Part shown: in pieces, positions 1 to 55,300 of the stretch
Position numbering within the stretch: the stretch's first letter is position 1
Layout: each line of letters starts with the position of its first letter
Assembly: GCA_040954595.2 (NCBI GenBank)
Contig: CM082582.2
Location: 9,167,483 to 9,231,482, forward strand
From: Balanoglossus misakiensis
Lineage: Eukaryota > Animalia > Hemichordata
Direction: 5' to 3'
DNA: 64,000 nt
Notes under the pieces: model-generated
The model's database searches: none
What the model saw: only the letters and a program-made list of their open reading frames with translations
What the model was told of the DNA's origin: nothing
Translations under genes and position numbers: made by a program

Positions 1-7169
<7,169 letters not shown>

Positions 7170-10335: not shown

Positions 10336-10740
10336 CTATCTCTCTACAAAGTCGTACGCTTGGTTCCCTAGGTTGTACACGTCAGAACACGGCCGGCAAA
10401 AGCAATCCTTGGCTGCGTGAGCGACGACCGCTTTGGACGTCTTGAGATAGGGGCAGCGGAGCACGACGGTGGTGGCGCGCTTGCTGAGCGGCGCGCAACA
10501 GGTGCAGTCCTCGCGGTAGATCAGGCCTTGGTCGTAGTTGCTCCAGAAGGGTTCGCTGCGCGACGGACACGAGCCGCGGCACGCTGTGGTTGGGATGACC
10601 CGCGGGATGCAGCCTGGGTGACTGACGACCATCTGGGCCATGAAACGACGACACTCCGCCGAAGATGACTGTGGGTATATCACCATGACGACAAGCACAA
10701 CCGAGAGAATCCTCTGCGCCGACATTGCGTATTCCCCCAT
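10336..10740 (-). CDS. Secreted cystine-knot hormone, bursicon-alpha/Norrin-like. 134 aa from ATG 10740 (alternative ATG 10725); single coding exon; probable 5'-UTR intron 10797-11610
   Basis: Hydrophobic signal (RILSVVLVVMVIYPQSSSA), then 11 Cys in the pattern C-13-C-9-CxGxC...CxCC...C...CxCxxC. PGCIPRVIP and CFCRPC resemble bursicon-alpha. Minus-strand acceptor tttttttcag at ~10797, donor gtaagt at 11610, polyA AATAAA at ~10117-10122. Confidence 0.85.
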   Translation of the reverse strand: MGEYAMSAQRILSVVLVVMVIYPQSSSAECRRFMAQMVVSHPGCIPRVIPTTACRGSCPSRSEPFWSNYDQGLIYREDCTCCAPLSKRATTVVLRCPYLKTSKAVVAHAAKDCFCRPCSDVYNLGNQAYDFVER

Positions 10741-12239
10741 CTGGGTTTCTCTTCTGTCCAGTAATATCAGCAAGGAATATTTTCTCGGCGAATATCCTGA
10801 AAAAAATAATAAAGGCAAATTGAGCACGCTTGTACTCAGTGAAAAAGTCACACAAATCCAGCTGAGTGCCCGGGGGTAAAATTTTCGTTTTGAAAATTCC
10901 AAAGACGACCATTGGCATTCCCGTTGGACAAATGCACGGACCGCCATTGGGCCCAAGATCAGTAAATTTCTGGTGCAATTGTCCTCCGCCGTTTTAAACA
11001 CCCCAAGGTGCTTGTTCGACTTTTTTTTCACTCTGGTGGTATCAATGTCATTGGAGCGGCATGCGTACTTGTTGAACGCCGTACACGCACTGTAAACTCA
11101 CGCATTCCACACGGACTGTCATAACTACAAGGAGCTGTTATTAAAACGGCAACGGTGAATCTGTCTCTTTCGCGTTGAAGGCGACACGAGCTATATGTGG
11201 CGCGCATGCAGCACTTGAATTAGGCTTATCCACAATTTTCACAGCCACTTCAAACGACCTCCGGTACATTGACGCGAGATGGAAAAGAAGACCCGGACTA
11301 GCTCGAAAGTAACGTTCTGGATACAAGTAAGACCGTGACTTTCCCACCACGGCACCAACACGCAAGACCTAACGAATTTTCTCAATACAGTCAGTGAAAC
11401 TTCCTGGCAGCAACGCGATTACTTGATCCTAACTTGACGCAAAAAAGGAACATGATGATCACGAAAGCTGTAAGATTATTTTTTCTCACTATTTCAGTTC
11501 AATTTTGCGCTTCTGACATCTACAGGCGACGATCAACGCTTAGTAGCGCATACATTTCCGACGATACATTTTACCCGGTTTTCAAGCACTGCTGTAGAAA
11601 AATAACTTACCGTTGCAAAGCAGTGGCGTGCCAAATGTCGCTCCTATACTAGTTTAAGACAGTTCAGTGATGTGACTCAAGAAATGAAAACTGTCAACTT
11701 GGTTGAGTTGCAGTCCTGCTATAAACGATTCCGCGAAGAACCGCCTCCGTTTGGCTGCAGTGACGTACGTGATGCCCTGCGTCTGTGGGCGTGATTGACT
11801 TGGCAACGGAAGAAGCTAGTGCCATGGCAACAAACATGTTCATCACCCACTATTTTCATCCCTCCATCTCTCTCTCTCCCTCCCACCCCTCTCTCTCTCG
11901 CTACCCCATGTATGCAATCATGCATACATACATTTGTAGTTTAATACTTCATATTGTGTTTTTAGAACACTGGTTGGTAGACTAAATGAACAGATCCCAG
12001 CGACGTCACGACCACGGCCAACAACATGCAACGTATGGTTCGAGTCAAGCGCATTAAGTCCTCCCCGACTCCGTCCGCGTGGAACATCCGGAACTAGGAA
12101 TCGACAGCGATAAGCACGTTGCAATGTTTTGGACCAGTATCTGGGCATTTGTTTGTAGGCTTTGAATATTAACTTCTTGTAATCAGCGATTTTCTCACTG
12201 ATTGCTCGAGGGGCGGGCGGAAAGATAAATATAGCGCAA

Positions 12240-23133: not shown

Positions 23134-25915
23134 TTAAATATCTGGGATCTGTTATAGAGAGAAACAAATGCATTAATCGTTCACTTCTTGACTTCTTGGA
23201 GCAGAATTATATTGCATTGAGAAGGCACATTCACAATTTTTTCTTCAGAAGATAAAATTCTTGATAAAGCCAGACCGCGTTCAAGTTTGCAAGTAAACGC
23301 ATGAAATTACTGAACATTAAAGACTGTGATTTTGATTCATCAACTCACAGCTGCTGCCAAAGCTTGTTCCAAATCTGCAATCAGATCTTTACTACTCTCA
23401 AGCCCAATGGACAGTCGAACCAAGTTGTCACCAATGCCAAGATCAGCTCTCTCTTCAGCCGTCATACCATCGTGGGTCAGGGTTGCCCTGGCAACAGAAA
23501 CATGCATGTCCACTGGTATGAAGTTGCCTTCAGTTATGAAGATTTATCAAATTCATAATGCTTATTCAAAAGAGGCCATCATATTTTCCTGTGGGAGACA
23601 ACCTCCTGCACAGAATATGCCAATAGTGGGTTTATGTCTCTGAGACGGCATGCATGCACAGAAAATCTCTCACGAATGGTGCAGAACAGAACATTCCATT
23701 CTCACAACTTACGGGTGTTCGGCGAGACTGTGGGTTCCACCAAGACTCGCGGCAAAGGCAAATATTTTCAGATTTCTGAAGAAGATCTTCGCTTCCTCCA
23801 GACCTCCTTTCATCCACATGGAAATCATTCCACTGAATCCGCTCATCTGCTTCTTGGCCAACTCGTGCTGCGGATGTGACGGTAGACCTGACAGGGAAGA
23901 TGGAAATTGTGCCGGAGTGGAAAAGAGTGGTGTCAAGTGTACTAGCAATAGCATACTGACATGTACTGTATTAGATATTGGTCTTGTAAAGATCAGCTAG
24001 TTACCCCACATGAACCCAGTCCTACCCTGGAGCCTGAACAAGACATGATGTGGGAAATGTAATGTCATACAATGTAGCTGAACCAAATCAGTGAGGGAGA
24101 GAATTTCCCCATAATGCTTAACCATATTTCAAAGCAGTTTGGTAAGGGATCCCTTTTACTTTGCTCGTTTGCTTGCATTATTTTCTGTGTGAGGGCGCTA
24201 TTCACAAAATAATACACAGACCTGGCATAACCAAGCTGGAATCAGTTCAACTAAAACAGAGAGATGCACCTTACCAGGATAGAGAACTTTCTCAACACGC
24301 GGATTCTCAGAGAGAGCCTTGGCAACCGCCATGGCATTCTCTTGGTGTTTTTCCATTCTCAGCGGCAACGTCTTGACTCCACGGTTGGCAAGGTAACAGT
24401 CAAAGGGTGACGGCACAGCTCCAATCACTTAAAACAGGAAAGATGGAGTTACGCGTTGACCAAAACACAATTATTGTTCGTCTGACTGGTGTCAAAAGAT
24501 GCCAGGAGTTTTTCTTAAAACCTGAGTGACTGTAAACTTACAGAGCTGAAAGTTCCTGAGTTTTTCATTGAAGTCATCTCTGTTCGTGCACACTATACCC
24601 ATGAGTACATCAGAGTGGCCATTGATGTACTTGGTTACTGACGACATCACCAAGTCTGCACCAAGCTTCAGTGGTTGCTATGGCAAAATGGAATCATGTG
24701 TGAGTGCCAGGCTCATTCGAGAATTTGCATCAGTTTGACAAGTACATATATGATCTGTGATTACCATGATAGATAGGTAAAAAATCACATAACATGACAA
24801 ACATACCTGGAAGTAGGGAGAACTGAAAGTGTTATCAACACAGAGAAATGCTCCATTGTTGTGGGCGATCTCTGCAATGGCGGCAATGTCTGAGATACGA
24901 AGGCCAGGGTTGGTTGGTGTCTCCATCCAGACCATCTAACAGAAGAAATATGGTGAAACAAAAATCATTTCTATCAGTTATGTTGTTATAATATTGCAAA
25001 AACCTACAATTCTCAATGGATCTGGGTAGATCATAATCAAGAATAGTGTAGATTCACCTTTGTGTTGGGTCTCATGGCAGCTGCGACATTCGCAGGATCC
25101 CGCGAGTCCACAAACGTTGTTTCAATGTTGAAATTGCTGGTGATTTCCTTCATTTGGTCACTGCATCCGCCGTAGAGTTCATTGCCACTAACGATATGCT
25201 CGCCCGCTTTCACCAGGTTGGTCACACAGAAGAGTGTTGTTACACCAGATGAAAAAGCGATCCCTATGGACAGGGGGGAAAATGGGTGACCATGTGAGCT
25301 GGTGTGTAGTAGCCCAGGGTTCCATAGGCAAGGAGTTTGAGGCTGCGTTTGTGTGATTGCTTCTTCTATGGCCTCCCACACTGTGGTGAAGGGTCGTCAC
25401 ACAAACGTAGCCTCATAAACTCCTCGCCTATGGAACCCAGGGCTAGAATAATGGTGGAACTGGACCTCACTTCCAAGTACCATTAGCTGTATAGTTGTTG
25501 TCACTTTTTTATTTTAGCTCACCATGTTTGGCCCCATCTAAGGCTGCAATGCATGCTTCAAATGCATTTCTTGTAGGATTGCCGCAGCGGGCGTATACAA
25601 AATCCTGGAATAGTAAACAAGAGGTACAGTGATTAGGATCATAGCAGCACTATTGTCTGGTCAAAATAACTGTTTCAAATTCTCTTCCTATAGGGCAATG
25701 TGTAACAGTATAAAGCTTAATTATGACTGCTTGCTTACTCCACTTTTCTCACCGCGTACCCCGGTTTTTCCGAGCTCCGGCAGCCGGAAGGTGGTGGAAG
25801 TCACAATCGGAGGTACCACTGCGGAGTCGGTCGCCCAAAACTTGGGTGCCTGGCCTGCATGCTGTACCACTGTCTCCATATCATAGGCATCCATGTCAAG
25901 AGATTTGTCAGCCAT
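23134..25915 (-). CDS. Cystathionine gamma-lyase-like PLP-dependent enzyme (Cys/Met metabolism family), 9 coding exons, divergent substrate pocket
   Basis: Spliced motifs AVVPPIVTSTTF, YARCGNPTRNAFE, AFSSG, LYGG, VWMETPTNP, CVDNTF, SVTKYINGHSDVLMG (PLP lysine), PSPFDCYLANRGVKTLPLRM, YPGLPSHPQHELAKKQM, SLGG..SLAEHP, LVRLSIGLE. Final mini-exon IPDI* at 23148-23134. Symbol withheld because orthology to CTH is uncertain. Confidence 0.9.
25310..25445. mobile_element. Short palindromic (hairpin) MITE in intron 2 of the CTH-like gene
   Basis: ~47-bp inverted arms tagcccagggttccataggcaaggagtttgaggctgcgtttgtgtga ... tcacacaaacgtagcctcataaactcctcgcctatggaacccagggcta, with a ~40-nt spacer and TA at both ends. 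Confidence 0.75.
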
Positions 25916-27222
25916 GTTTGTAGTTGCCCTGGTGAACTGGCTGAGCTGAAACTGTTTTTTTATCAAGGCAGGTGAGCTATACTAGTGGATACTCTTGATT
26001 TAAAAAATCCTGTTGGAAAAGTAAACATATCAGCAGTGTATAAGTAGATTTGAGATAAAATTGCCCCATATTAAAATTAGAGGTGACCAGTGTCTGATTT
26101 AGACAGGGGTGGCACCCCCTGTTGACATATTGTAACACACCTGGATAGCTCGACCGGTCCCACTGCCCCCCCCCCCCCCGCCAAAAAGGTTGACCGGTGT
26201 ATGTGTGTGTTTTTTTGGGGGGGACTGTCCCCCCACCACGCACACTGGTCAGCATTTTGGCGGGGTGGGGTGGGGCAATGGGACCAAAGTCTCGAGCTAT
26301 CACTCGTTACCAAGGCAATATAACAACTGTGAGTTGGATCCATATGGACGGTTCTAGTTTTGCCATTCAGCCCGGCTCCCAGGGAATCCCCTCCCCCAAG
26401 TTCGCGTGCACAGCAGACTTGGACCCCATATGTATCATGTGTGGTGGAGTGAGCGGCTATATAGTACATGTACTGTGACCTGGGCCCATGGGGCGGGGGC
26501 TCCCGTGATCGCGCGATACGCGTATATACGATGCATAATATTATGCAAGAGACAGGGAAAATACTCACTCAACTTTTGGCATATGTGTGCAGGAATCTAT
26601 GCAGATTATACGAACGGCGTTTGATAGTTAGGATTCATAAGACATTGGTGATAGATCGGGTGACAAACCAGGTAGCCCCGCGCCAATTAAGGGAGAAACC
26701 AGTGTTTCATTTGGGGTGGGCTACGGTTGCAAAATGTACATGTACGGTTTAAAGGGCGTGTCCCCGGGGGCGTGTCCAAGTCTGGGAACTTAAATAACCA
26801 GTGGTGGAGCACTTTTTTTCGTGGCAGCCCAAATCAAAATCTGTCATTGCCCCGCCACTCAAAATAAGCAGGCTTTCTCCTGGATCATATCAGACATCTC
26901 TTCGCGCAGATTACCAACAATTCATTGTGCGTTTATTTTACGATAACCAAGTCCAGATATGTCTTGATAAGAGTACTATAGTAGGCCTACGGTATTTTGT
27001 CCTCTTGGAAAATCGCTACGTAGGCCTACAGTGTACTATTAGATCCACCGAACCAGAAGTACAGAGCATTTACTTTCGTACATTCAAGTATTGTCATGTT
27101 TAATGTTTTGAAGTCGTAAGGCCGACTTAAAAAAGAAAAGTGCTGTTCCTTATACTTGGTATCTTGTTACCATGATAACAGCTGGGTTGTGTGGCGCCAT
27201 CTATCGTTGGCATGGCAGAGAT

Positions 27223-27241
27223 TGACGTCAAGATGGCCGCC
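27223..27241 (+). promoter_or_regulatory. Full CRE palindrome (TGACGTCA) abutting a YY1-type CAAGATGGC motif that overlaps the NOP9 start codon
   Basis: attgacgtcaagatggccgc at 27221-27240. Function not demonstrated. Confidence 0.45.
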
Positions 27242-30200
27242 CCCATGGAAAGGAAACGTTTCCAGAAACGGGAAGGAAAAGGACCGCATTCGGACAAGCA
27301 GACGGAAAGGCCAAAGACCGGGCGATTAGACGAGGACACTATGGGTTACTACAGGAGGGTTTCGGATACCCTTGCCGAAGGATTCGAAAATGTTGATGAT
27401 AAAGGTAGATATGTACATATGTGTACCAGAATCCGTTTTAGAAACACGTGTACTGTACGCGTACACGTGGGTCACTGGAAGGTCCAAAGACGAAGGGATG
27501 GTGGGATGAGTAATTGTTCGTGTAAATGTTTATTAATTTCGCAGAGCTCTTCGTTCAGAATGTGTTCGCGCAGACTGAGAAGGAAGAAATCAAACTGTCC
27601 CAGAACCAAACTGTCAGCCGAATATTGGAAAATCTCATCCGCAGTGGCCAGCAGAAAGAAGTGAGGAAGTTTATGACAGGACTGTCAGCAGACTTCCACA
27701 AAGTTTGCTTTGACCGTTTTGCTGCCTATGTATTGCAGACCATCATCATCCAGATTCCGAAATTTCAAGAGGAGGGTGGCGAGGCGCAGGAGGATGCGGG
27801 GGAGGGAGAGAATCCCCCATCCTTTGAATCTTTGCTCTTGCAGTTGTGTGATCTGTTTGTGGATCAGTTGACTGATGTTTTGCACGACACGTATGCTAGT
27901 CACGTGTTGAGGACTGTCTTTGAAGTTCTGGGTGGAGTGAAGGTGATGGAGGTTGTTGTCAGGAGTCGGTTGTCACGGGAACAACAAAACAAAGGTGAGT
28001 TTCTCTTTCTGTGGTTGTACATCTGGACTTTAAATTAGACTGAAAGATCAGTTGACCCAGTCAGATAATAAAAATATTTAGGGGTGTCACAGGGTCATTT
28101 TGTGTCACACCTCAAAGCCCAGTCTTCTCCATTTGCATACACTCAGATACTGCAAAGCAGCATGAACAGTCACTACCACTCAAAAGCAAACCAAGAAAGA
28201 AGTTCAGGAAGAAACTGAAAGAATTCACAAAATTAATCCGAGGAAGGGAAGACATGCATGGTAAGTAATTCATTAATCTGCTGTCACTTTGCCACTCTGT
28301 TCCTTCTTATCATCAAATTATGTACCTTTTAACCCTTTCACCACAATGGTTTGGTCGATAGCTTTAAAGGGCTCAATGATTGATCAATTATTTTTTTCCA
28401 TACAGATTTACTCTGTCATGTGACATGTTGTCCAGTCATACAGACTTTACTTCTCGTGTTGCATCAAGTGAAGAAAGAGGAGTGTATGCAGCTTTGCGCC
28501 GTTGTCATGGATGCAGCGCAAGAGAGAAGTGATTCAGACACAGAGGAAACAGACAAGAAAAGGTATTGTAAACTGAAATGAGAAAGTTACTTTTGAAAGA
28601 GAGAGCATAAGAAAAGATTGTGATGGAAGGAAGTTACATTATTCAGGCAAAGACAGTGACCCTGTACTTTTGAAAGGGGAGTCAAACATTTGATAGAGAG
28701 TGTTTTAATTGAACTCTAGTTCATTTTGATCATTTTACTAGGTTACCAGTCATATTGACACATGCAGTTGGCAGCCATCTTGGTGAAGTTCTACTCCAAA
28801 TAGCAGATGAGGAGACACTCACAAAACTGTACGAAGAACACATCAAGGGGAATGTACTGCAAATGGCTTGCCATACCTCAGCAACATTTGTGCTTCGGAA
28901 GTTTCTGACAAATGTGTCAACTCTTAGTCAAGTGAGTGAAACATATTTTCAAATGATGTTGAATTCTGTATACTAGTATGGCTGCCATGCCAAAATGTTC
29001 AAAATAGGTTAAAATGGAAATATGGCTCAATAACGCATTTTAACCACTGAGGAAGATCACAAGTCATATCCCTTGCAGGCAAAAAGTTAAATTAATATTC
29101 TGTCTGTTTTAACTTGAATTCCAGTTTGAGGGGGTATTTGATGAGTGTGTTGTGGGCATTGAAGACATACTTGCCCACAATCATATTGGTGTCATCACAC
29201 AACTAGCAGAAGCCTGCATCAAGCACAACATTGGGCAAAGTAAGTTTTAGATTTCTTCCTATATTCCCAAAACTCGCTTTGTATACTTGAAGTTGGTGTC
29301 CAAAGCCAGTCAAGGGATAATAGAATGGACCTTCATTGTGTATTTAATAGCAATATTTAAATCAAGTGCTGTGATTTTTCTCTTCCAGGCAAGCTGCTTA
29401 AGGCCTTGATGCAGGCATTCCATTGTTACAAACCCAAGTCGAGACAGAAATGCTGTGTCAAACTGTTTGCTTCATTCGCCACCTATGAAGTTTTCTATGA
29501 TGTGAAGAAAGAATCAAATGGTCTGAATGAGACTGGTGGAAAGGTAATGTGTCGTCACTATAAGCCTCTCTAAGTTGCCAGGTAGTCAATAACTTAGAGT
29601 ATGATTTCCTCAAGCATTTTCTAAATCTGTTGTTCCAAAGGACCTTTTTCATACCAAACCAAACCCACGTCAGTTAATGCTATACTACATCTGTAACATG
29701 TTCTCTGCAGGATGAGGACACAGGTGCAATCCCTGATGGTGAAAACCTCCAAGCCAAGCTATCAGAGATCAATCTGCAAGGCTCTTTACTGCTTCAGAAG
29801 CTCCTCAACTTCAGCGACTGCAGCAAAGTCGTCAACAGCCTCCTGGAAACGTCGGAGGAAGAAATTTTCAACATGTCGTGCGACCAATCGGGAAGCCACG
29901 TCGTCGGAGCATTCTTCAAGTCGAACACGGTCGGCGAGAAAAAGAAGGAACAGCTCATTGAGAAACTCAAGGTGGGGGAAAATATTGTCGAAATGATGTT
30001 TATTTTTAATTGTAGAAAATGCATTGAAAATTGTGACACTGTTGCGACATTTTTTTGTTCGTTTGGTTTTAAAGGGATGGTACGTTAAAATGGCATGCAC
30101 CAAACATGGCAGTAGAGCAGTGGACTCCATCTGGAGCAACGCCACTCTGAAGGTCAAGTTCACAATCGCAGAAGAGCTTGCCAAGAGGGAGGCCCAGCTC

Positions 30201-31044
30201 AGCCAGGACAGGTTCGGGCAGTTCGTGCACAGAAACTGTGCCATCGGACACTTCAAACACCGGCAGAACGACTGGAAGTTTATCCAGAAACGGGACGAGA
30301 AGAAGCGCAAGATGTTTTCGGATATCCTGGGGAATGAATCAGGTATGCCAGGCCATAGGTCAAGTTTTATAACATCACCCCCCCCCCCCCCAAAAAAAAA
30401 ATACATATGTACATATGTCCCTTTAATCTCGCTGGTACTGAAATTGTTAGCGTGCCAGATGTCAGACATACCTTGAAACTCACATCTCATCAACATGTTT
30501 ACTTTCCACCAGAGACTTCTCCAAAGAAGGCAAGAACAGAAACAGAATCCAAGTCAAAGGCTGATGTGAAATATCAGCGAGAAATGCAAACGCTGGGGTT
30601 TGATGATTCTGTAGACAGGACATCAAACAAGGTACGTATATGTCAATCCGAGTGTCAAAATATCCTTGGAATAGCATGATGTCGATGTTTATTTCAAAGA
30701 GCAGTGGAAATGTACGAGACTTTCCATGGCTATTCGGATTTCATGACTAAGTTATAAGTTTTTCCATTTTGTAGGGACCACAAGGTGGGGAAGAGGAGGA
30801 TGAGATTGAGGCTCTGTTCAAGAGAAAGTCGCAGTCCAAAAGTGCAGCTGTCACCCAGATCCAAAATGAGCGGGGACACGTGAAGGGCAAAGAGAAGAAA
30901 GTGTCACAGAAGGCGACTGTAGTCACCGATATTGGAGATGGTGATGGAACAGCAAAGTCAGAGAAAAGGAAACATCCTGGATCGACAGGAAGCTCAAAGG
31001 TGTCGGGAAAGAAATTGAAAAAGAAACATGCTGCAGGAACTTGA
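27233..31044 (+). CDS. NOP9: Nucleolar protein 9 (Pumilio-repeat rRNA processing factor), multi-exon
   Basis: N-terminal TMGYYRRVSDTL; PUF-like repeats DRFAAYVLQT, DTYASHVLRT, HAVGSHLGEVLL, CDQSGSHVVGAF, ACTKHGSRAVDSIW; C-terminal DRFGQFVHRNCAIGHFKHRQNDWK and a Lys-rich tail. GT-AG introns; stop TGA 31042-31044. Confidence 0.88.
28329..28377. mobile_element. Truncated copy of the ~95-bp piggyBac-like MITE in a NOP9 intron
   Basis: ttaaccctttcaccacaatggtttgg... shares its terminus with the copies at 5259 and 43658. Confidence 0.5.
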
Positions 31045-37300: not shown

Positions 37301-40300
37301 TAAAGTGAGTTGGGAAAGAAAACGGAAAGGCTGTCAAAGTATCAGGGATTGAAAAGCCCGGCTGTCAGTCTCCGGGAAAGCAGAGCGAGCTACCAATGTA
37401 CGTATAACAGTGCGTGAATAGGCCGCAATTTACCGTACTGTCGTCTAGCGAGAATTTGATTTCACTTCAGTCTGAGCTCACTGAATGTCTGATTCGTTTT
37501 CCTGATGTGGTTTGATCTGTTGCCTCACTGTTTTGACATATTCAACAAATGAGTTTCTTTGAGGTTTTCTGGAAGACTGACACCACATACCCACTGAATT
37601 AAAAGCGATTGTACCAGATTGGCAGATTTCTCAGAGAACATTGCCTAAATTATCTGTTGACCATTTTCATGAGTTAAATTTTTTTAGCCCTACATTATTC
37701 ATAATTATTCAAAATCTTCATACATATGAAGTATTTAGAAGAAGCAACCTCTTATTTCACTCTCAAGCAGTTGGCTTAATGAGCTGCCACTTCGCCAAGA
37801 CTAGATTAATGGATTGGTGGAAATTGCATTGATTGACAAAGCAAATGGAGATTTCTCAGAAGCTCAGATTCTAGAGGAAATTGTTGTGCATGCCATATGG
37901 ATATAAATATTCCAAACAAACGTGTTAAAATTTATTGGTGTGGCAAAGGTTGCGTATAACAGTTTATGTAGATGTATTGTTGCTTGCCGAATGATACCGT
38001 AAATCAAGATTTTTTTTAAAAATTTCATGAATATTGCAAGAGCCCGAAAAAAAATCTAAATCATCGTGACTGTATTTATTTCCTGAGGTGTGTGTGATAT
38101 ATTGAGGAAATGTCACACAACTCTATAGTTTCTGTGTTTACTGATGCATGTATCACGGTTACCATGCATGTATGAACTGCTTAGATTTGAGGAACAAGGC
38201 AAATACTCTCCTTGATGATATTGCAAACAGGAAATTTTTGCTGGATTGCCTTGGAATGACAGATCAATATATAAATTAATCGGAAAAAACCTCTGTTAGA
38301 TTTCCAGGTTTGCCGGACTATACAAAAAGAGCATTGATGCAATAGAAAAGCAAAATACAAATGAACGAAAGAAAAAGGTCAATCTATGGATTCCTTGAAA
38401 TTACAAATCCGTGTTTCCCCAAAGGCGGTGATGCCAGGTTTTGCATTTTCCGTCGGGCAAATGTGGGTTGCAGATTGCCAACAAACGTGTGCAGGGAAAG
38501 TTAATTCTGGGTGGAATTGAAGCAGTTGCCATGGAAACAAACTGCAAGACTTGATTCAGCCATGTGAATGTCTTTTATGCTCTTGTAGACAAACACTTAC
38601 ATTTCTTGTCTTGAATTCTTTTTTTTGTATGCATCAAAACATGTCAAATCTAAATTGTGCTGGCGTATTAAGGTAAACACAGAGTACATACTAGCGATCT
38701 TATCAGGCGGAAAACATTTATGGCTAGATCTGAATTTGCTTTTAACAAAGAATAGGCATTACATTACATAGTTTGTCTAGAGTGCACTGCATGATTGGTG
38801 TAAGTAGACAACATTACCCTCGTAATATTAGTCTGCCGTCCAATTATGGACAGATTTGTTGGGAGAAAGAAATGGACATTGTATTAAATATCAGAAAAAT
38901 GCCTTGTTGAATTAAATTATATGTTGTCTGTAGGATTTGAAGGGGAAACTGACTGTCATACTAGATATAGAAACAATGGCTAATATTGAAGGGCCAGTTG
39001 CTGTAAACTCTTGATTTCAGAAATCACAAACGATATTGAAGTAGTATTTTAGCCAGTTTGTGTTTAGAACTTTGCAAACTTAGCTGTGTGGAAAGCTCAG
39101 GTGTACTTTTATTACTCTTATGAACGTATCGACACAGAATATGGCATATAAAATAACCTCTCTGTTCGACAGCACACACACAGATTGTGGGGGTTGCAGA
39201 TGGGACATTGTATCATTGAAAGTATTTTGTGTTAAGCTCAATTTTCATTTCAGAATATTACAACAAGTGACATTTCAGAACGTTTCTTACAATGTATCAT
39301 CTTCGGCTTTTGCCCATTCAATGGAGCAATTCACGTCACTCAGGCTTTAAAGATGCAGCTTACACAAAGCTTTTACAAAGCTGACATTTGAATCCCTTCT
39401 TCTGTCAACAGACTGGAGCTCTCTTGTTGTCGGCAAGACATCGCCATGGCTACAGCTGGATTCACAGGATGAGATTCTCAGGAAAAACTCAGAGCTGGCT
39501 TTGAAGCAAGAACTGTCGTATGCAGGACACCTCAGCATGCCAGCCGTTTTAGTGAAATTGTACAGTGGCAACTGCAGTAATCTCGGCCGGGTCCTGCTGA
39601 GTCATATGCTAGGGGGTTTCAATCAGCAGGTAGGCATATTGATGGGTTGGTTGGTTGGTTGGTTGGTTGGTTGGTTGGTTGGTTGATTGATTGATTGATT
39701 AATTTAATGTTGATTGGTTGATTACATATTGGGTTGGTTGGTTGTTGGTTGGTTGGTTGGTTGATTAGTGGTTTGGTCAGTCTGTCATTTATTTGATTAT
39801 AAAATCATTGACTGATTGATTGATTTTTCTTTATATACAGCTTTGGATTCACGTGCCAATGGCATCGCCCTGCACGACCAGAGACAATCTTGTAGACTTT
39901 GACGGTGAACCTAATAATGTGGACGAGAAAGAGAAAAAAGAAGTCGACACGTGGCAGTGGTGGAACACATTGCGAACTATTTGCGACAGCCACAAGAAAA
40001 TTTCTTTAGGTAAATACAGATTGTGATCCCATTGCTTTCAGTGGTGGTGTTCTTTTTAATGTACAAAGAGGGGAAAATAGTTTTTGGCATTGCATGTCTC
40101 ACATGTAATTAGATCAACCTTTACATCACTGCAGTTGTCTGAAGGGGCAAAATCGCTCGGAATTGGACACCGAAAACCATTTTGAACTCGATACTTTTCC
40201 ATTGAGTGTTCATTGATGTCTCCTGTTGAAAAAAACAGCAAAGAAGCGTGGAATTTTAAACATTGCTTTTCTATAGTTTTCTTTTATATCCTCCAGCACT

Positions 40301-43300
40301 TACCTTTACGGTGCAATTCTGATACACGATACGTATTACATTACGCGAAATCACCATCACAGTAACAGACTTGGTAACATTATCCGCATCCTCGCAGAAT
40401 AATGTAAAAAAAAATGGCAACCAAGATCAAGTTGCCGAGATCACCCTTCATTGTCAGTTCCAATGATAAAGGCATGCCAGATGCTCCTTTCATTAAGGGG
40501 TCACACCTATGCAAATTTAGCCACAGTTACCATGGAAAGTGGAGATCTAGCCAATCACCAATTTACAATTGGTGGCCATGCAAAAAACAGACCGTCACTA
40601 TGTTCTTTAGAAGACTCAGACATGCCCTTTTAATATGGGTTTATGTAAATTAGAGAGGTGATATGTATTCCTTTAAATTTCAGCTCTTGAAGTATCACTA
40701 GATTTGCCATCCAAGGCTTTGATTGACAGATGGCTGGGCGAGCCAATCAAATGTGCCATCCTCCCGACCACCATCTTCTTGACCAATAAGAAGGGATATC
40801 CAGTCCTCTCCAAGTCCCACCAGCAACTCGTCATTCGTTTGCATAAGGTAAGTGCAAGAGTGGGATCATTCTTAGCTGTGTCCCTTTAATACATTTATGG
40901 AGAAATAAAATATCAGTTATGTATTTTATCTTGAGCTAGTTTGAAATATTATAACTCTAAGCTTATACTGCAATGAATCAAATTCTTGAAACAAAATATT
41001 GGTGAGAATTGCACTGCAAGGGAAGAGATTTTTTCTGTGAGTTGCCTTTTAACATAACTGGATTTGATAAGATTCAAGATACTGGGTTCAGTAATAATAA
41101 ATTTCCGCTCTAGATTTTATAGAGTGATATTCAGGATGCAAGCTTTATCTGCACAACACGAAAATCCAGCGGGAAATGTCATGTTTATTCCCAAGGGGAC
41201 AGATTTCACTGGAACGGATTTGCAATTTTGTCTCCAGTATTTGATTAAAACGGAAGTCATTTGTTGGTATTAATCCTCCCTGGCAGCCAGCAGTATCGGT
41301 GTCCAGTGCATTAATGTGTCTTCGTTGTCATGCAAGTTTTTTGTTGATTTTCGTGTGTTTTAGTGCATTTTCATGCATTTTGCTACAATATCAAAACAAC
41401 TCAACCGAAGTTGCAACTTTCCTGAAAGCTATATATAGTGAATCGCATTTTCGTCTATCTATCCCTCAATTGTGCAACGTATTAATTGCTATTTCCATTG
41501 AATCTGTTGAGTCATCCTGTAAATTGTTCTGTCGGTATATATAAAGCGCTTCTGGCTGCATTGATAGTCATTATCGTATCCAAGCTTGTGTGTAATCATT
41601 TTGAAATCCAGTCATTTTGAATTCCATGCATGTATTGCATCATCCAACAGATAGTTAAACTGCACATCTGCAACCAGAGAAAGAATTACAACAAGAACAG
41701 TTTTTAAATTGGATTAGAAAATAGGAGCATAATCATCCCAGGCAAATCAGCAAATAGTTAGATGTTATCCCATCAGTTAACAGCATTTGGTAGCCATGGT
41801 GATTTTAAACAGAAAAAATGTTTCTTCTTTATCAGATAAAAGTCCATGTGTATTATGTTACTGAGTACAATTACAAATGGAGCAGTTTAGATTGAAAAGT
41901 GGGAAGGTTATGTAGGATATGGCCAGTAGCCACCGACTCCCCCCCCCCCCCCCCCCAACAAACTGAGCATAAGATTGCTGGCTGTGAAAATACTTGTTTG
42001 TTGTAAAAATCCATACTTCGTGACTGAACAGCATTCTTTGGTGTCAGCTTGATAACACCATTACAAAACTTTGCGTGATTCATAAAGAAATTGTTGTTTA
42101 ATTCAATTTGTCGTACGACCACCTTTAGTTAGCCTTTCAGTGACTCCTGCGAAATTGCCATAACCCTTTGTGTTGGCGTCTAGATGGGCTTGTTAACAGT
42201 GTTCTGCCCTCTATCAAATGCAATCTACGAGCTATTTTGTGGTAATTTGGAAATTTGTCGACATTTCCCTGGTTTGTCTGTGTCGTACGATTACACGCGT
42301 AAAACAAGCAATTTTCTTGCGTCATGGAAAATCCAAGCTATCTCCCGCACAGGTTTAGCTGGCACTTTGACTAACAGTGTGGAACGAAAATAAGTGACTA
42401 TTAAACATTTTCACAGCGGTAATGCAAAATATGGCATAAAATCTGTTTTTGATGAGTTGTGTCTTTTTTCGTCGCATAGCTCGACGTACAGATGATGATC
42501 ACCGGGACGAACCGGCACCCAGACAAAGGCATCAGAGCCTATGTGCAGTACATGGATCACCTGTATCAGGCACAGCCTCCTATGTCCGGATTAGAGTCGT
42601 TTGCCAAGGGATACGAGGATTACCTGCAGTGCCCTCTTCAGGTAAATGCCACAGTGCCATTATCTCTTTTTGAAATCCAAGTAGCTCCACCTACTCATTG
42701 CGGATTAACTCAAATGTCGGATTTCACTGAGGCTGTGCAGGTTTTTTATCAGGATTTCAGAGCAGTAAATTTATAGATTTTAACGTTGCTAGAATTGTTG
42801 GTGTTTTGTAATCCATCTCAATTATTCTGTTTTATAAGAGGAATTTTATCATGTACATATGCAAATATAAATTGTACGAATACACTCATACGTACAAGAA
42901 CATATAGAGATTGTACCAGAAAACTTTACTTTGATATTTACTTTGTTTCAGCCATTAGCAGACAATCTAGAATCACAGACATATGAAATATTTGAGAAGG
43001 ACCCAGTGAAATATGCACAGTACGAGAAGGCCATCTACTATGCATTACTGGACAGAGTTCCAGCAGAAGAGAAAAGTGACACTACAGTGTGAGTTGATTC
43101 AAATATTCAATCTGCAGCAATGAAGTGGTCAAGGAGTTTATTGCTAGTAATCTCAAACGTGAGTGTCATAAGAATAATTGGTTCATTAGATAAAGAAAGT
43201 TGAATTGAATTTGTTCGTCTGTGTTCCCCAACAGGACGTTGATGGTACTGGGAGCTGGCCGAGGACCACTCGTCAGGGCCTCTCTCCAAGCCGCAAAAAA

Positions 43301-45991
43301 GGCAGACAGACAAGTCAAAATTTATGCAGTTGAAAAAAATCCAAATGCAGTTGTCACGTAAGTAAGATGTAAAAATTACAGTGATATGTGAAGTTACAGT
43401 GAAATGCTGCAAAGACCCTTTTCCTGGGGGTATTGAAAAAGCTTGGAGAATTTGGCACAAAATGCAAGAACCTACCTCAGAAGCAGCTGAAATATTTCCA
43501 TGTACCCCTCTGAAGGGAATTAACCCACCCGCTGCCTTAGTCTTCTTTAATCTTGTCTCTGTCAATATGGATCCGAGTATTTGCAAAATGGGGAGACGAT
43601 GATTGATTTCAGTGTTAAGAGTTGACGTTTCAATTAGTGCCTCTGTGCTTCAGGGCCTTAACCCTTCCTCCCCCCGCATCCCTCTGGAGAGGTCCAACAT
43701 CGCCACTGAGAACTATAGGAAGTTGGGTCAAACCATGGTAGTGAAAGGGGTTTTAAATTTTCTCTCCATTGTCAGATTACAAGCGTTTCAAGACGAGATG
43801 TGGGGAGACCAGGTGACGATTGTGTCCAGTGACATGAGGCTTTGGGAAGCGCCCGAGAAAGCCGACATCATCGTCAGTGAGCTGCTGGGTTCGTTTGGTG
43901 ACAATGAACTTTCACCCGAGTGTCTAGACGGGGCAGAGCCCTTCCTCAAAGGTTGGTATTTGATCTGCTCTGATCTGCTTTCTGGAAACGCCCATCTCAA
44001 GGTGGAGTTCCATGATACCTGTATTAATTAAAATGTATTTCTTATCAAGGACAGTGTGGGTACCTCCACAAACCATAGGTTTTCACAAAGCCCGTGTATT
44101 CGAACATTTCTCTGAAGTGATGTAAAGCAAAGAAGCTGTGTAGAATGGCATAGATATTACACCATTGATTCATTTGATCTTATTTTCCCCTGCTACCAAT
44201 CACTGTTTCTCAGTCATGAAGGCAACCATGTTGCCGTGTGAAAATTCATGCGAATTAACTGTGAGGGCGCTCTTCATCACAAGAGGGTTCACATCCTTGG
44301 GCAGTTTATAACCTCCTGCATATTTGCAATTTGTCTCCATTCTGTTTGCTCAGACGACGGCATCAGCATACCAAGGCAGTACACTTCCTACCTATCACCA
44401 GTTTCTTCACATAAATTATACAATGAAGTCAGATTGTGCAAAGACAAGGATAAGAATCCTGATGTAAGTGTTTCTCTGAAGCATTTCGTGAACAGATAAT
44501 TTTTGTTCTGGTATAAAACCATCATTTTTTATTAAACACATCAGATAGTTACATGTGTAACTTTTTTTATCATCGTACCTTCATGCAGCGTTTGGTGTGA
44601 TTAATAATAGGTCGTTGATAGCCAAGGGCGATACACGACGCCAGCCCAAATGTCACAACTGAAAAATTAATCGTGTCACGTGTTTGGTTTCCCAGGCACA
44701 CTTCGAGACGCCGTATGTGGTACGTCTGCACAATGTCAACACGTTCGCAGAGGCCGTGCCCATGTTCACGTTTGCCCACCCCAACAAAACACACAGGGAG
44801 AACTCGCGGTTCAAAACGGTTAGCTTTGATGTGGACATCGACACAGTATTACACGGTTTCGCTGGCTATTTCGATACCATTCTGTATGGCGATGTCACCC
44901 TGAGTAAGTAAATCCATCATTTCTGATTACTGTTCGTGCAATATATTCCCTTTTGTGTGTCCTATCTGTGAAATTCCCTTCGTAATTGGTAGCCTTGCTG
45001 TATGAATATTTTTCTGTTCCTGTGGGTCAGGAATTTTTTTTTCATTGTCAGCTGAGCTCATCCCAATCTGGTTCCAATGAAGAAATTCAATATATGCCCT
45101 ACTTTGAAAACAGGCATACATAATTCGTATTTTAGACTGTATAATGTCCTGGTTTATTCTCTGAGCCGTGGTAGTAACTGTCAGGTTGGATTTGCTCTTG
45201 CGGATCACTAAAGTTCATCAATATCACTCATGATTTAATACGCCTAACCAGCTTTGAGCTCATGGATAGATGACTTTATACTTTACAAAACCTTGTTCCA
45301 GATCTCTTAAATTAAAAGATGACTTGGAAACAATCTTTGCATTTTACTCTACGACCCTTCCCCCAAAGGCCCAGATTCCGTCCTTCAGAGAATGGAGATT
45401 TCTCAACAACTTCTAGTAATCGCTGCCCGTAGCAAGCGTCCCAGCTGTCATCATTAGATAACGGCAACCCTTGGCATTTATTAAGAATGCATTATTTTGC
45501 CACCAAGTGACTTAAAATCTATCCATCCACCCACTCTCTGAGATCTACAGTTAATGCCCCCGGCTGCTGTTGTGTGGCATCCGGATCCGAAACAGTTTGG
45601 CCTGAATTGTTTTTCCTGACAATTCCATGCTGCTTTATTCTTCTCCGTAGGTATCTGTCCCAAGACGCATTCAGAGGGAATGTTCAGCTGGTTCCCGATC
45701 TTCTTTCCAATCAAGGTCAGTTTGTGCCAGAGTTTCTGTTTTCGTCTCCTGTTTGTGTGTTCTTGTTTTGTGGGTGCAACCATTTTCTGGTTTGAATTCT
45801 GGGTTTCACCTTATTCATTGCAATTCATGTATTTGCAGGAACCCATCTTTTTGAGGAAGAATGACAAGGTCACAGTGACCTTCTGGCGTAACTCGACAGC
45901 GAAGAACGTGTGGTACGAGTGGTGTGTGACAGAACCCATCATCAAGGCAGTCCACAACCCCAACGGTAGATCGTACACTATAGGACTGTAA
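34318..45991 (+). CDS. PRMT5: Protein arginine N-methyltransferase 5, 13 coding exons (approx. 34318-34409, 35426-35544, 39412-39629, 39841-40009, 40684-40847, 42480-42641, 42951-43088, 43235-43357, 43775-43951, 44354-44463, 44696-44903, 45651-45715, 45838-45991)
   Basis: [138 protein letters not shown]. Confidence 0.96.
35559..35674. repeat. (TTCA)29 microsatellite
   Basis: Perfect tetranucleotide array starting 14 nt into PRMT5 intron 2. Confidence 0.95.
39645..39765. repeat. (GGTT)n/(GATT)n compound microsatellite
   Basis: Visible in PRMT5 intron 3. Confidence 0.88.
43658..43757. mobile_element. Near full-length copy of the ~95-bp piggyBac-like MITE, opposite orientation to the 5259 copy
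   Basis: ttaacccttcc...gtgaaaggggttttaa; its reverse complement aligns with 5261-5350. Confidence 0.62.
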
Positions 45992-52361: not shown

Positions 52362-55300
52362 TTATTTCTTTTCTTCTTTACTTTCATTCTCCGCGTTTCC
52401 ACCGGCGGGACTTGGGGTATCTGCGCTATCAGCAGCCTTTTCCTCCTGGAAATGAGATCACAAATCAATCTGAAAGAAGTTCTGCAGAGTGTATCGCGTT
52501 TCAGCTGAACCACAGGCATAGAGACAGGACGACTATAGCTGTTTCATTTGCAATTTCAAAAACATATATGCCTACAGCTGTGTTTGCAGATTCAATAGAG
52601 CATTATCTACTCTGAAAATTAAAAGAAATCTATTTTAAGGCAGTGTTTATCAAAAACGCACACGCTAAGAGTGTTCTTGCCATATGGAAGCCATAGTGCT
52701 ATTAATAATAATGCCCTGGCACCAATCCACTGTTTACTTTTTTCGCAAAAACATTCAAACACAATTTATGTTGATGAATCAAATTATTACCTTTGGTGCT
52801 GGTTCCTTAAGAGGACTGAGCACAACTTTTCCAATGTTTTGTCTGTCATGCAACTTCTGCATAGCAGCACCAATCTATGGGAGAAGAAAAATTCCAAAAT
52901 TCAGATATCTTGGAAGATTTATTTTTCCCCAATGATATGCGTAGGTTGACTAGCACATTTCAAACAATTTAAATCCTACAGAATGTTCTCAAAGAAAACA
53001 ACAAACAAACAAGAGTGCTACTCACCTCTTCGAATGCAAACACAGAATCGATTACCGGTTTGATTTTGCCAGCTTTGAACATGTTGGTCAGTTCAGCCAT
53101 CACTTCTCGCAGGACGTCCACACGACCTTGGGCGAAGATGAGGTTTTGCAGCATAAAACCCGAGATGGTTTTGTTCTCATCGTACAACTTGATTGGGTTG
53201 ATCTTGTCAACCTGCCACCACTGTTGATGAAATAACGAATGAAACAGGATTTGAATTCACATCTCACAGGAAATGCTGGCAGATGTCTGCATATCATTAG
53301 ATTATAGACTACACACTTTATTTTGTAGGAATTTACAGCATCTCAACTATGATTGTGTGACTTTGAAAAAAGCAAACTTACTGCTTTGGCAAAACTGAAG
53401 AAACTTCTTGTCTCCCCGGTAACAACATTGGAAGAACCTGTTCCAAAGAAAAGACAATTTTACTTGGCAAAATTTATAATAAAATTTGGAATTACATGTA
53501 CTTAGAGATGTAAAGTAAATTTGTACCATAAATTGATCAAATACCGCAGAATTTATTTCATCCACTGCTTCCAATAAATGATCAGAATTTCTGTTTCTAT
53601 TTTTTGATTTGTTTAAAAAAGGAACCACTCAGAATACGTTCTCTTCCTCCACTCCTCGCAAAAGGAAGAGAGGAACGTTCATCAATGATCAAGGGCAAGT
53701 TGCCGTGAGGCAACACCCGAGATCCGCTTCGCGCTCAGAAGAGAACGTTATAGCTCGTCATCATGGTTTTGGGTGCCCCCAAGTTTATGGGAAACTCAGA
53801 GTGGATACATACTATAGAAATGATCCCTAAAAGTATGATCTTAATTCCAATATGGCGTTTCATAGCTTAAATAGCAGGAGCTAGAAACATTAACTACGGT
53901 TTGATGTCAGTGAGCTAATGTGGTAAATATAACTCTCCTGACTAATTTATTGGACTATAAAACGTCAATTTTCGACTAAAATCTAATTTATAACTGAACT
54001 CTTATTATTTTCTTATCTGACCCTGAACCATAACATCGATGTATATGTCTTTTTCGGTCATTTTTGCACTCCTAGCAGGATATTCAAATTTATTTAAAAA
54101 TACGCAAGGTCATGAGTTCACCCTTTAACCTTGTTCACGTGACTTGTCAGCTGATCGGTAAACAGACTGTGCTGCATGCCCGACTACTGTACCACTAGCT
54201 TCTACACAGAATCGTGACTGTCTCCGTGTGCGTAAAACTATATTTACAGGTAAGACACATTTATTAACGTCGCAGTCGCTTGGGAATTGAATTGTATACA
54301 CGGCAATCGCGCCTACGACTTAGAAAAGTGTATCTTCATTTATTCCACGGTCGGTCCGTTGTGGAGTGACCGTGTTTATACTGAGCTAAGTTTTGAAGGA
54401 ACTGTGATCTGACCCTAAAACCGGCCCCATCTTCTCAGTTTTCGCATGCCTTAAGGTCAGTCATGGAATTTATTTTACCACAGTTGCACCCCTATGGTTC
54501 AATAGTGCTTACTGTAGCTTGATGCAGGGGCAGCCCTCAGTAAAGGGTGCCACGCCCCCCGGCCTTAGAGAGTGTGTCGTTTTTCACATTTTCAAAACCA
54601 ATAGTCTAAATCTACATCGCTGAAAATGCACGATCACTTCAAGAAATGCAACTGAGGCCTCTCTATAATCAAGTGGTCTATCCATTAGGGGTCATCCAAT
54701 TAACCCCGTTACTCTAACTTTGCCATATTTTCAGTGCACTTTCCCATGATTCCTTGGGGTATTTCCATCCTTGAACGAAGTCTTTAATACTTTGTATATA
54801 TCATATTTCTACACAAAAGCAAGACTGCCCAAAGAATGTATTGTCTCTTGTGTTTCAATCACAATTCAACGTTTAAAATGTATTGGTGCTGATTGTAGAC
54901 CTGCAGGTATAAGACCAACAATAGCAAAATGGTATGGTGTTGACTGATAAGTTTCAAAGGGGGAACAGTACCGTGGGTGTAGAGTTTCTGACATGCTATA
55001 AGAGATAACCAAAGTAGGCTTTCTTTTTATGATGGTCAGTGACATCTTTCCCCTCAAACACATCTTTCTCAGTTCTATACATTCATTGTGATTATTGTCC
55101 TTTCATTTTGTATTCAGTTGGTATTTTCTCCCAAATTTTCCAACACACATGCACAATATACTTACCAAAGAGAATATATTTGCCCATTGGTTTGAGCAGG
55201 CTGATTCCTTTGTTTGTATCCTCGCCACAGAGACAATCAAGAACAAGGTCCACGCCTTCGGGTGAGATTCTGATGAAATTTAATTAAAAAATCACCGGAA

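Follow-up and report, generated by a model that had tools for sequence, protein, structure and literature searches.

The acorn worm Balanoglossus misakiensis encodes a protein of the cystathionine gamma-lyase (CGL) family in which the PLP-binding and catalytic core is intact and the contacts to cystathionine are replaced; judged from its sequence, it is probably still active as a gamma/beta-lyase but has lost the recognition of cystathionine. Cystathionine gamma-lyase performs the last step of cysteine synthesis and is a major source of H2S in animals. The protein (WIN) is the product of a CGL-like gene in a stretch of 64,000 nucleotides of B. misakiensis DNA (the window), and together with its enteropneust relatives it forms what we call the variant clade. 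The initial annotation had proposed a non-canonical animal lyase. That proposal stands as regards an enteropneust member of the CGL family with an intact core and replaced cystathionine contacts, but it overstated the weight of one replacement, E59V (human CGL numbering here and below).

The gene lies on the minus strand (25915-23340) and is intact, with eight exons, a CDS of 1185 nt and a product of 394 aa; the frame is open through all eight exons and all seven introns are GT-AG (Table 1). The start is the first in-frame ATG past a stop, and exon 1 has a GT donor. The gene thus falls inside the span 23134..25915 first given for it, but the left limit of that span is 206 nt past the stop codon. 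The three motifs on which the proposal was built are present on the minus strand, in exons 2, 3 and 7 of the gene model. Exon 1 includes the equivalent of an N-terminal loop with which human CGL covers the active site of the neighbouring subunit. Searches by tblastn with P0001, P0025 and P0030 matched this single gene and found no second copy within the window. The PF01053 profile (Cys/Met-metabolism PLP-dependent enzymes) matches three single exons with E values of 2e-16 to 4.5e-15, which places the protein in this family, and the Ptychodera flava orthologue P0001 is annotated with the same domain.

Table 1. Exons of the B. misakiensis CGL-like gene, in window coordinates, with the residues each carries; human CGL equivalents follow the equals sign.
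Feature	Position	Strand	Content
Exon 1	25760..25915	-	ATG 25915-25913; residues 1-52; N-terminal loop remodelled, Q49->L, P52->L
Exon 2	25523..25604	-	D-F-V-Y-A-R-C-G-N-P-T; V55 (= human E59) codon 25598-25596; Y56 = Y60, R58 = R62 kept; C59 = S63
Exon 3	25058..25263	-	S-G-V (= S89, G90, L91->V); L-Y-G-G-C-S-D-Q; Y110 = Y114; PF01053 match
Exon 3, pocket residues	D115 (= human R119) codon 25159-25157	-	Q116 = Y120
Exon 4	24807..24935	-	E-T-P-T-N-P, V-D-N-T (= E157, N161, D187), all kept; PF01053 match
Exon 5	24542..24677	-	S-S-V-T-K-Y; Schiff-base lysine K207 (= K212) codon 24632-24630
Exon 6	24275..24427	-	starts L-I-G-A-V-P-S-P; L236, L237 at human N241, S242 (partners of R119)
Exon 7	23713..23887	-	F-A-A-S-L-G-G-T-H; A334 (= E339) codon 23750-23748; S335, L336 kept; PF01053 match
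Exon 7, H340 (= E345)	codon 23732-23730	-	
Exon 8	23340..23487, incl. stop 23342-23340	-	A-T-L-T-H-D-G; L-V-R-L-S, R370 = R375 kept
Exon 8 replacements			I353->T, M354->L, A357->D, S358->G; T355 kept
3' flank or UTR	23134..23339	-	without coding sequence

Human numbering was anchored by a HMMER alignment of P0001 to PDB 6ovg, the chain of the engineered methioninase hMGL-4.0 and the second-best PDB match of P0001. In this alignment all eight substitutions of hMGL-4.0, as published (PMC7293657), fall at exactly the expected columns. The earlier alignment had put V, D and A at E59, R119 and E339, and MAFFT alignments with 18 and with 118 relatives, as well as the HMMER alignment of P0001 to PDB chains, upheld it; in the same columns E is found in 105 of the 114 canonical animal sequences, R in 112 and E in 113. 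Animal CGLs (CTH/CGL/CSE, EC 4.4.1.1; PDB 2nmp, 3cog) belong to the same PF01053 fold family and are 50-54% identical to WIN over the full length; human CGL chains match P0001 at E ~1e-128, and their PLP-binding and catalytic residues are identical to those of WIN.

The equivalents of Y60, R62, Y114, D187, K212 and R375, already described as intact, are all kept in WIN in a MAFFT alignment with 114 canonical sequences, as are S89, G90, E157, N161, S209, T211, S340, L341 and T355. Residues K207, D182, S85-G86, Y56, R58, Y110 and R370 of WIN align with columns that are invariant in the 114 sequences; we take them to be the Schiff-base lysine, the aspartate at the PLP pyridine nitrogen, the Ser-Gly pair and the Tyr and Arg that bind the phosphate, and the arginine for the alpha-carboxylate. 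Part of these functional labels comes from PMC10641705. At the 18 PLP and catalytic positions checked, WIN and the other three complete members of the variant clade all retain the residue; the Saccoglossus model P0028, which is truncated, departs at T355 and H356 and is without R375. This model has 373 aa and an odd C terminus, probably an annotation fault, and we therefore did not rely on its last columns.

The distal pocket, in contrast to the core, is replaced, and this together with membership of a long-stemmed clade found only in enteropneusts distinguishes WIN from animal CGLs. According to the literature, cystathionine has its distal carboxylate hydrogen-bonded by R119, which also contacts S242 (PMC10641705), S63 is anchored by R119-N241 and P52 of the lid loop is contacted by I353 (PMC7293657), and the cysteinyl moiety is coordinated by E59-E339 (PMC6073527, PMC10053738). 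The role in the distal pocket that the initial annotation had assigned to E59, R119 and E339 agrees with these accounts (PMC10641705, PMC6073527, PMC10053738), and all three residues are replaced here. The pocket differences between human CGL and WIN are E59V, S63C, L91V, R119D, Y120Q, N241L, S242L, E339A, E345H, I353T, A357D and S358G. Where canonical CGLs have the Glu pair E59/E339, WIN has V55 and A334 (V and A/V in the variant clade), and in place of R119 and its partners N241, S242 and S63 it has D115, L236, L237 and C59.

These replacements are not private to B. misakiensis. The variant clade comprises five proteins from four species: WIN, P. flava P0001 and P0025, Glandiceps P0024 and Saccoglossus P0028, the last four being the closest to WIN among the best 120 of 7,996 scored candidates (84.8%, 76.8%, 78.1% and 64.3% identity, respectively). 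No member from outside the enteropneusts was found among these 120 or among the 150 best representatives. Common to all five are V59, D/E119 (D, D, D, E, D), A/V339, Q120, H345 and T353, which allows chance or sequencing error to be discounted; S63, L91, N241 and S242 are likewise replaced in the clade. In total, 21 columns hold a residue that is shared by at least 90% of the 114 canonical sequences and replaced in the variant clade. Since the clade spans the split between harrimaniid and ptychoderid enteropneusts, dated to ~373 Ma in PMC4729200, the new residues have been maintained for a long time. The pocket is, however, not tightly fixed, because the positions of S63, T117 and N118 differ among the members. 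A canonical E/R/E enzyme is present beside the variant in two of the three named related species (Saccoglossus P0143, Glandiceps P0030); for P. flava, the 120 best hits to the canonical enzyme of Glandiceps include no canonical CTH.

The phylogeny that had been suggested as a check set the variant clade apart: two quick trees give it SH-aLRT values of 100 and 99 and stem lengths of 0.83 and 0.61 changes per column. When unconstrained, the quick trees place it either outside the metazoan polytomy or within it. A tree that groups all seven hemichordate sequences was better than the free tree by 3.36 lnL and was not rejected (p-AU 0.578); this joint grouping with the canonical enzymes would make WIN a paralogue, not an orthologue, of CTH. 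We infer that the variant clade is a duplicate of animal CTH that would predate the crown enteropneust split (at least 370 My ago), diverge fast and then be conserved, a timing that depends on an AU test that fails to reject the grouping. That the clade is instead an ancient paralogue or was acquired horizontally, a question of origin only, is unlikely: one free quick tree makes it the sister group of the 34 canonical metazoan sequences taken together (SH-aLRT 90), but, besides the better likelihood of the constrained tree, identity peaks with animal CGLs and falls to 47-49% for bacterial relatives and 44% for methionine gamma-lyase (MGL), the gene carries seven spliceosomal introns, and no member from outside the enteropneusts is among the best 120 of the 7,996 scored candidates or the 150 best representatives. 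A search with exons only gave mostly bacterial matches at ~50% identity; a bacterial origin drawn from it was rejected, because full-length queries rank animal CGLs first and the bacterial matches are an effect of the short query.

The positions changed in the variant clade overlap with those that protein engineers have changed. As the initial annotation had stated, E59N/R119L/E339V (hMGL-1.0) turns human CGL into a methioninase (PMC7293657) and E59T/E339V into a cyst(e)inase, and both are in print; according to PMC7293657, methionine is degraded by hCGL-E59N/R119L/E339V and not by wild-type hCGL. The later hMGL-4.0 is E59I/S63L/L91M/R119A/K268R/T311G/E339V/I353S (PDB 6ovg). At six of these eight positions (59, 63, 91, 119, 339 and 353) the variant clade also differs from human CGL, and five of the eight fall in the 21 changed columns, an overlap with a chance of 1.3e-5 (hypergeometric, 21 of 394 sites). 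The residue type is the same at 59, 339 and 353 and partly at 63. At position 59, human CGL has E, hMGL-4.0 has I and the variant clade V; at 63, S stands against L and, in the five variant members, C, C, W, L and Q; at 339, E against V and A, V, A, A, A; and at 353, I against S and T. In other respects the natural and the engineered proteins part: the engineered enzymes have Ala or Leu at 119 where the variant clade has Asp or Glu, K268 and the Ser at 311 of the variant clade represent the ordinary invertebrate CGL state, unlike hMGL-4.0, and the invariant Q120, H345, L354, D357 and G358 of the clade are absent from the engineered methioninases.

Bacterial MGL (EC 4.4.1.11; TIGR01328) resembles the variant clade in its apolar residues at 59, 63 and 339 and a small polar one at 353. 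Our representative, P0278, which passes the TIGR01328 equivalog cut-off and is 44.3% identical to WIN, carries I, L, V and S, respectively. In the variant clade the residue is apolar in 5/5 members at 59 and 339 and in 4/5 at 63, and position 119 is D/E in 5/5, as against A in P0278 and hMGL-4.0. MGL carries a Y-G-C motif, the Cys of which is out of register with the variant clade, where Y-G-G is followed by C, S or I. P0001 scored 371.7 bits against TIGR01328, a model built for prokaryotes with a cut-off of 549.7 (control P0278, 598.5), and passed no NCBIfam cut-off. In the NCBIfam scan of 22 proteins, cut-offs were passed only by the controls (P0278 for MGL; P0005 and P0020 for O-succinylhomoserine sulfhydrylase; P0017 for O-acetylhomoserine sulfhydrylase).

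The change of the carboxylate-binding Arg to an acid and of both amino-group-binding Glu residues to apolar ones would abolish the normal docking of cystathionine, and would leave a largely hydrophobic pocket resembling that of natural and engineered methionine gamma-lyases. The external aldimine would still form, and from the lost docking and the hydrophobic pocket one would expect alpha,gamma- (or alpha,beta-) elimination on another sulfur amino acid, one without a distal carboxylate. Methionine, homocysteine, cysteine or an S-alkyl derivative could be the substrate, and ammonia, a 2-oxo acid and either a thiol or H2S are the predicted products. The conserved acid at position 119 is the one feature that a plain methioninase model leaves unexplained.

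This acid is the starting point of another reading, which we regard as rather unlikely, namely that WIN is a lyase or gamma/beta-replacement enzyme for a substrate with a cationic distal group, bound by Asp/Glu119 instead of the lost Glu59/Glu339. S-(2-aminoethyl)cysteine (thialysine), S-methylmethionine, S-adenosylmethionine or a guanidino-oxy compound such as canavanine would be candidates. At this position all five members of the variant clade have an acid instead of the Arg, natural and engineered MGLs have Ala, and the invariant Q at Y120 and H at E345 suggest a specific polar site, not merely a greasy pocket. The family also offers a precedent in canavanine gamma-lyase, for which the available part of PMC9533460 reports no turnover of methionine or cystathionine, and the same text lists other members with different gamma-chemistry; the pocket residues of canavanine gamma-lyase, however, are not given in that part of the paper. 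Proteins with Asp or Glu at 119 (P0247 and the representatives P0317, P0334, P0335, P0347, P0358 and P0363) pass no NCBIfam cut-off, so these representatives give no functional precedent. Alternatively, with the R119-N241-S242 contacts gone, the function of the Asp may be structural. Moreover, none of the candidate substrates is known from enteropneusts in the literature searched, where we found no paper that mentions both cystathionine and hemichordates and, among the best-ranked papers, none pairing cystathionine gamma-lyase with a hemichordate name and nothing relevant on animal MGL or CGL-like paralogues. A more specific conjecture, which we think unlikely, is a natural animal gamma-lyase in which Asp/Glu119 would read a cationic leaving group (for example a sulfonium, as in S-methylmethionine or S-adenosylmethionine, or an amine, as in thialysine), CGL being repeatedly re-tooled in animals (enteropneusts, birds, flukes and insects). 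If true, animals would reach volatile sulfur compounds, or a secondary metabolite, by a PLP route known to date only in microbes.

WIN could also have remained a cystathionine gamma-lyase, or a CGL that produces H2S in general, with an altered mode of cystathionine binding; it would then be an isozyme with no new activity, which we consider very unlikely. The fully kept catalytic core fits such an isozyme, and E59 is dispensable in other CGLs: V occurs at this position in 3 of the 114 canonical sequences, including lemming (Lemmus) CGL, and in PDB chain 8j6n, and Toxoplasma CGL, with S at 59, is active according to PMC6073527. Valine or serine at 59 is thus tolerated in active cystathionases, and E59V, which the initial annotation had treated as unusual, is on its own not diagnostic. 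Furthermore, the failure to find a canonical CTH of P. flava among the 120 best hits means that the variant copies of ptychoderids might be their sole CGL-type genes. Against this, R119 and E339, each all but universal in canonical animal sequences, are both replaced, R119 by a residue of opposite charge; so are N241, S242 and S63, the partners of R119; hMGL-4.0, with a milder set of changes, already has 15-fold lower activity on cystathionine (PMC7293657); and Saccoglossus and Glandiceps have retained a canonical copy beside the variant. That WIN is a decaying or non-catalytic duplicate, with pocket changes due to relaxed constraint, is highly implausible: the long stem, the variable positions 63, 117 and 118 and the lower identity between the Glandiceps and Saccoglossus variants (65.6%, where the canonical enzymes of the two species reach 73.0%) would suit it, but the eight-exon open frame with canonical splice sites, the core residues kept in every complete member and the conservation of V59, D/E119, Q120, H345 and T353 themselves over the enteropneust split all speak against it.

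The three distal-pocket residues that nature has changed, and kept changed for more than 370 My, are those that engineers alter to obtain therapeutic methionine- and cystine-degrading enzymes. The variant clade is thus an evolutionary experiment to set against the engineered proteins, may provide stable animal-derived scaffolds with new specificity, and would point to a further step in the way sediment-dwelling acorn worms metabolise sulfur amino acids. The enteropneust case is not unique, since CGL paralogues have been rewired independently in other animals, with I/E/F at positions 59/119/339 in the 'CGL-like' protein P0247 of the canary Serinus canaria, N/V/V in P0250 of the fluke Calicophoron daubneyi and V/E/E in P0083 of the cricket Anabrus simplex. 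By tree placement and residue comparison their origins are independent of the enteropneust clade: none of the three groups with it, their residue sets differ, and the bird protein falls inside vertebrates (support 97), the cricket protein inside arthropods (99) and the fluke protein, with weak support, among lophotrochozoans. These independent copies suggest a recurrent, unstudied class of CGL-derived enzymes.

The cystathionine gamma-lyase (CGL, or CTH)-like gene lies on the minus strand at 23340-25915 as a single gene of eight coding blocks, as delineated from stop-to-stop frames and inspection of the sequence. The initial annotation had spanned 23134..25915, of which 23340-25915 stands as the gene, while 23134-23339 proved to be 3′ flank. 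Joining of the blocks at GT-AG boundaries gives a frame of 1185 nt (394 codons) starting at the ATG at 25915, the first in-frame after a stop, and three of the exons individually matched Pfam PF01053 (Cys/Met-metabolism PLP-dependent enzymes). tblastn with three relatives as queries detected no second CGL-like copy within the 64 kb.

When used as the sole query, the largest exon retrieved a 'cystathionine gamma-lyase-like' protein of Ptychodera flava (P0001; 85% identity). Among the matches listed, a search with full-length P0001 gave four proteins above 60% identity besides the query, all of them enteropneust hemichordate models, including Glandiceps talaboti P0024, Saccoglossus kowalevskii P0028, and P0025, a second P. 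flava protein encoded on the same 42-Mb contig as P0001. After splicing, the protein encoded by the gene shows 84.8% identity to P0001, 78.1% to P0024, 76.8% to P0025 and 64.3% to P0028, and 50-54% to canonical animal CGLs, which carry E/R/E at positions 59/119/339 of the human enzyme. The database model of P0028 (373 aa) stops early, leaving the C-terminus without alignment; annotation probably overlooked its last exon.

We aligned the window protein by MAFFT with 18 and with 118 relatives. V55, D115 and A334 fall in columns where the 114 canonical animal sequences have Glu (105), Arg (112) and Glu (113). Human numbering was anchored independently, by HMMER alignment of P0001 to PDB 6ovg, the chain of hMGL-4.0, a human CGL engineered into a methioninase by E59I/S63L/L91M/R119A/K268R/T311G/E339V/I353S (PMC7293657); the chain reads I, L, M, A, R, G, V and S at the expected columns. 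Since the two alignments agree, the replacements E59V, R119D and E339A, as assigned in the initial annotation, are correct. The equivalents of Y60, R62, Y114, D187, K212 and R375, likewise listed earlier as intact, are all kept in the alignment with 118 relatives, as are those of S89, G90, E157, N161, S209, T211, S340, L341 and T355. The alignments show, at the level of residues, a complete PLP catalytic apparatus combined with a remodelled distal pocket.

At 21 columns the five enteropneust variants depart from a residue that 90% or more of the 114 canonical sequences have. E59 became V and E345 became H in all five, R119 became D, D, D, E and D, and E339 became A, V, A, A and A; S63 is replaced by C, C, W, L and Q, L91 by V, V, V, A and V, and N241 by L, L, Q, K and L. 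T117 and N118 are replaced variably within the clade, and the changes further include M354L, A357D and S358G. The N-terminal lid loop is altered too, by Q49L and by replacement of P52 with L, V or I. Y120Q, S242L and I353T also occur in all five variants, outside the 21 columns because the canonical residue is below 90%; at 242 human CGL has S, most canonical animals A and the clade L. According to published work on CGL, the cysteinyl moiety is coordinated by E59 and E339 at the mouth of the pocket (PMC6073527; PMC10053738), R119 is bonded to N241, which anchors the S63 hydroxyl, and I353 contacts P52 in the 50-56 loop, which I353S frees (PMC7293657). The 21 columns, out of 394 sites, take in five of the eight hMGL-4.0 positions (hypergeometric P = 1.3e-5); since these eight positions were themselves picked from the active site, the overlap shows that the replacements are aimed at the substrate pocket, but it does not make the enzyme a methioninase.

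PMC7293657 describes wild-type human CGL as having no methionine activity, which is gained in E59N/R119L/E339V, and hMGL-4.0 as having 15-fold lower cystathionine activity; E59T/E339V is described as 'cyst(e)inase' (PMC11340627), and a preprint on yeast methionine gamma-lyase (MGL) presents the R119 and E339 equivalents as likely selectors of methionine versus cystathionine (10.1101/2025.07.27.667015). A representative MGL, P0278, exceeds the equivalog cut-off (TIGR01328, 598.5 versus 549.7 bits) and has I59, L63, I91, A119, V339 and S353, a type of pattern that hMGL-4.0 copies at these pocket positions. The clade is alike in kind at 59, 339, 353 and, partly, 63, but differs at 119 (Asp/Glu versus Ala) and additionally has Q120, H345 and D357. 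In a profile scan P0001 scored above no NCBIfam cut-off. In a comparison alignment (proteins of 300-520 residues, drawn from 378 fetched), 211 proteins have E/R/E. Asp or Glu at 119 also occurs in representatives P0317, P0334, P0335, P0347, P0358 and P0363, none of which is above an NCBIfam equivalog cut-off, so they provide no functional precedent. In the comparison alignment, P0353 and P0300 alone among proteins outside the clade have His in the E345 column; P0353, about 42% identical to P0001, also has V59, Q120 and A339 in common with the clade.

Judging from the Lys, Asp, Tyr and Arg residues kept, the enzyme would bind PLP and use them to form the external aldimine, and then perform alpha,gamma- or alpha,beta-elimination. 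Cystathionine would no longer fit the pocket: Asp115 would lie opposite the distal carboxylate, and the distal ammonium would be left without either of its Glu partners. The likeliest substrates would be sulfur amino acids lacking a distal carboxylate (Met, Hcy, Cys, S-alkyl derivatives). We somewhat favour the prediction of an active lyase other than a cystathionase, acting on a small or apolar substrate. The main alternative, to which we give a minor chance, is that the substrate has a cationic distal group, predicted to be held by Asp115; interest in the enzyme would grow if assays revealed such a substrate or an otherwise new one. Retention of cystathionase activity appears improbable.

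Two quick IQ-TREE trees united the five variants in one clade (SH-aLRT 100 and 99) with a long stem (0.83 and 0.61 changes per column). In the free tree the clade fell outside the canonical metazoan sequences, with support of 90. A tree holding all seven hemichordate sequences together was 3.36 lnL better and was not rejected (p-AU 0.578), so a duplication of animal CTH within the enteropneust lineage and subsequent rapid divergence fits at least equally well. Glandiceps and Saccoglossus also possess canonical E/R/E enzymes (P0030 and P0143, respectively, with 73% identity between them); none from P. flava was seen among the best 120 of 7,995 scored candidates (those sharing most words), which is weak evidence. 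A dead duplicate is very hard to credit, because the new residues are common to both sides of the split between the two main enteropneust lineages, dated in PMC4729200 to ~373 Ma ago, and so were maintained. Glandiceps-Saccoglossus identity, 65.6% for the variant pair versus 73.0% for the canonical pair, indicates somewhat faster evolution and no decay.

The initial annotation had read the three pocket replacements, with intact catalytic residues, as the mark of an altered enzyme, a reading that is supported in part. The combination itself holds, but E59V alone says little, as three of the 114 canonical sequences, Lemmus CGL among them, and PDB chain 8j6n have V59 too; nor is the case unique. 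In CGL-family paralogues of other animals, positions 59/119/339 read I/E/F in the canary Serinus canaria (P0247), N/V/V in the rumen fluke Calicophoron daubneyi (P0250) and V/E/E in the cricket Anabrus simplex (P0083), the bird and cricket proteins also having an acid at 119. In the tree P0247 falls within vertebrates (97), P0083 within arthropods (99) and P0250, with weak support, among lophotrochozoans; none groups with the enteropneust clade, indicating independent events. By these comparisons the acorn-worm variant is one among several independent CGL rewirings in animals and, as far as the databases show, is restricted to acorn worms. Our literature search returned no paper pairing 'cystathionine' with 'hemichordate'.

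The neighbours of the gene are ordinary animal genes: C2H2 zinc-finger, DAN-domain, NOP9, PRMT5, U3 snoRNA and an ADH-like exon. The DAN-domain frame is a candidate secreted BMP-antagonist-like gene. The NOP9-like gene is head-to-head with the CGL-like gene, and a region of ~1.3 kb may serve both as a divergent promoter. The intergenic sequence immediately upstream of the CGL-like gene contains an inverted repeat that may represent a small repeat element.

Features of the CGL-like gene and its surroundings (window positions)
Feature	Position	Strand	Details
Large C2H2 zinc-finger gene	1-5070	+	G+C-rich stretch (0.53-0.60)
Open frame with many C2H2 zinc fingers	1-3297	+	extends past window's left end
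Additional zinc-finger frames	4295-4669, 4741-5070	+	
DAN / cystine-knot domain frame	10339-11097	-	E 6e-8
CGL-like gene, exons	25915-25760, 25604-25523, 25263-25058, 24935-24807, 24677-24542, 24427-24275, 23887-23713, 23487-23340	-	
Inverted repeat	26156-26285		31 nt, 90% complementary, 68 nt apart, long C and G runs
NOP9-like PUF repeat exons	27179-30473	+	
PRMT5 exons	39351-45988	+	TIM-barrel, methyltransferase, oligomerisation domains
U3 snoRNA gene, full-length	53624-53842	-	Rfam RF00012, 180 bits, model positions 1-219
Exon-sized frame, alcohol dehydrogenase GroES-like domain	58034-58432	-	E 2e-8
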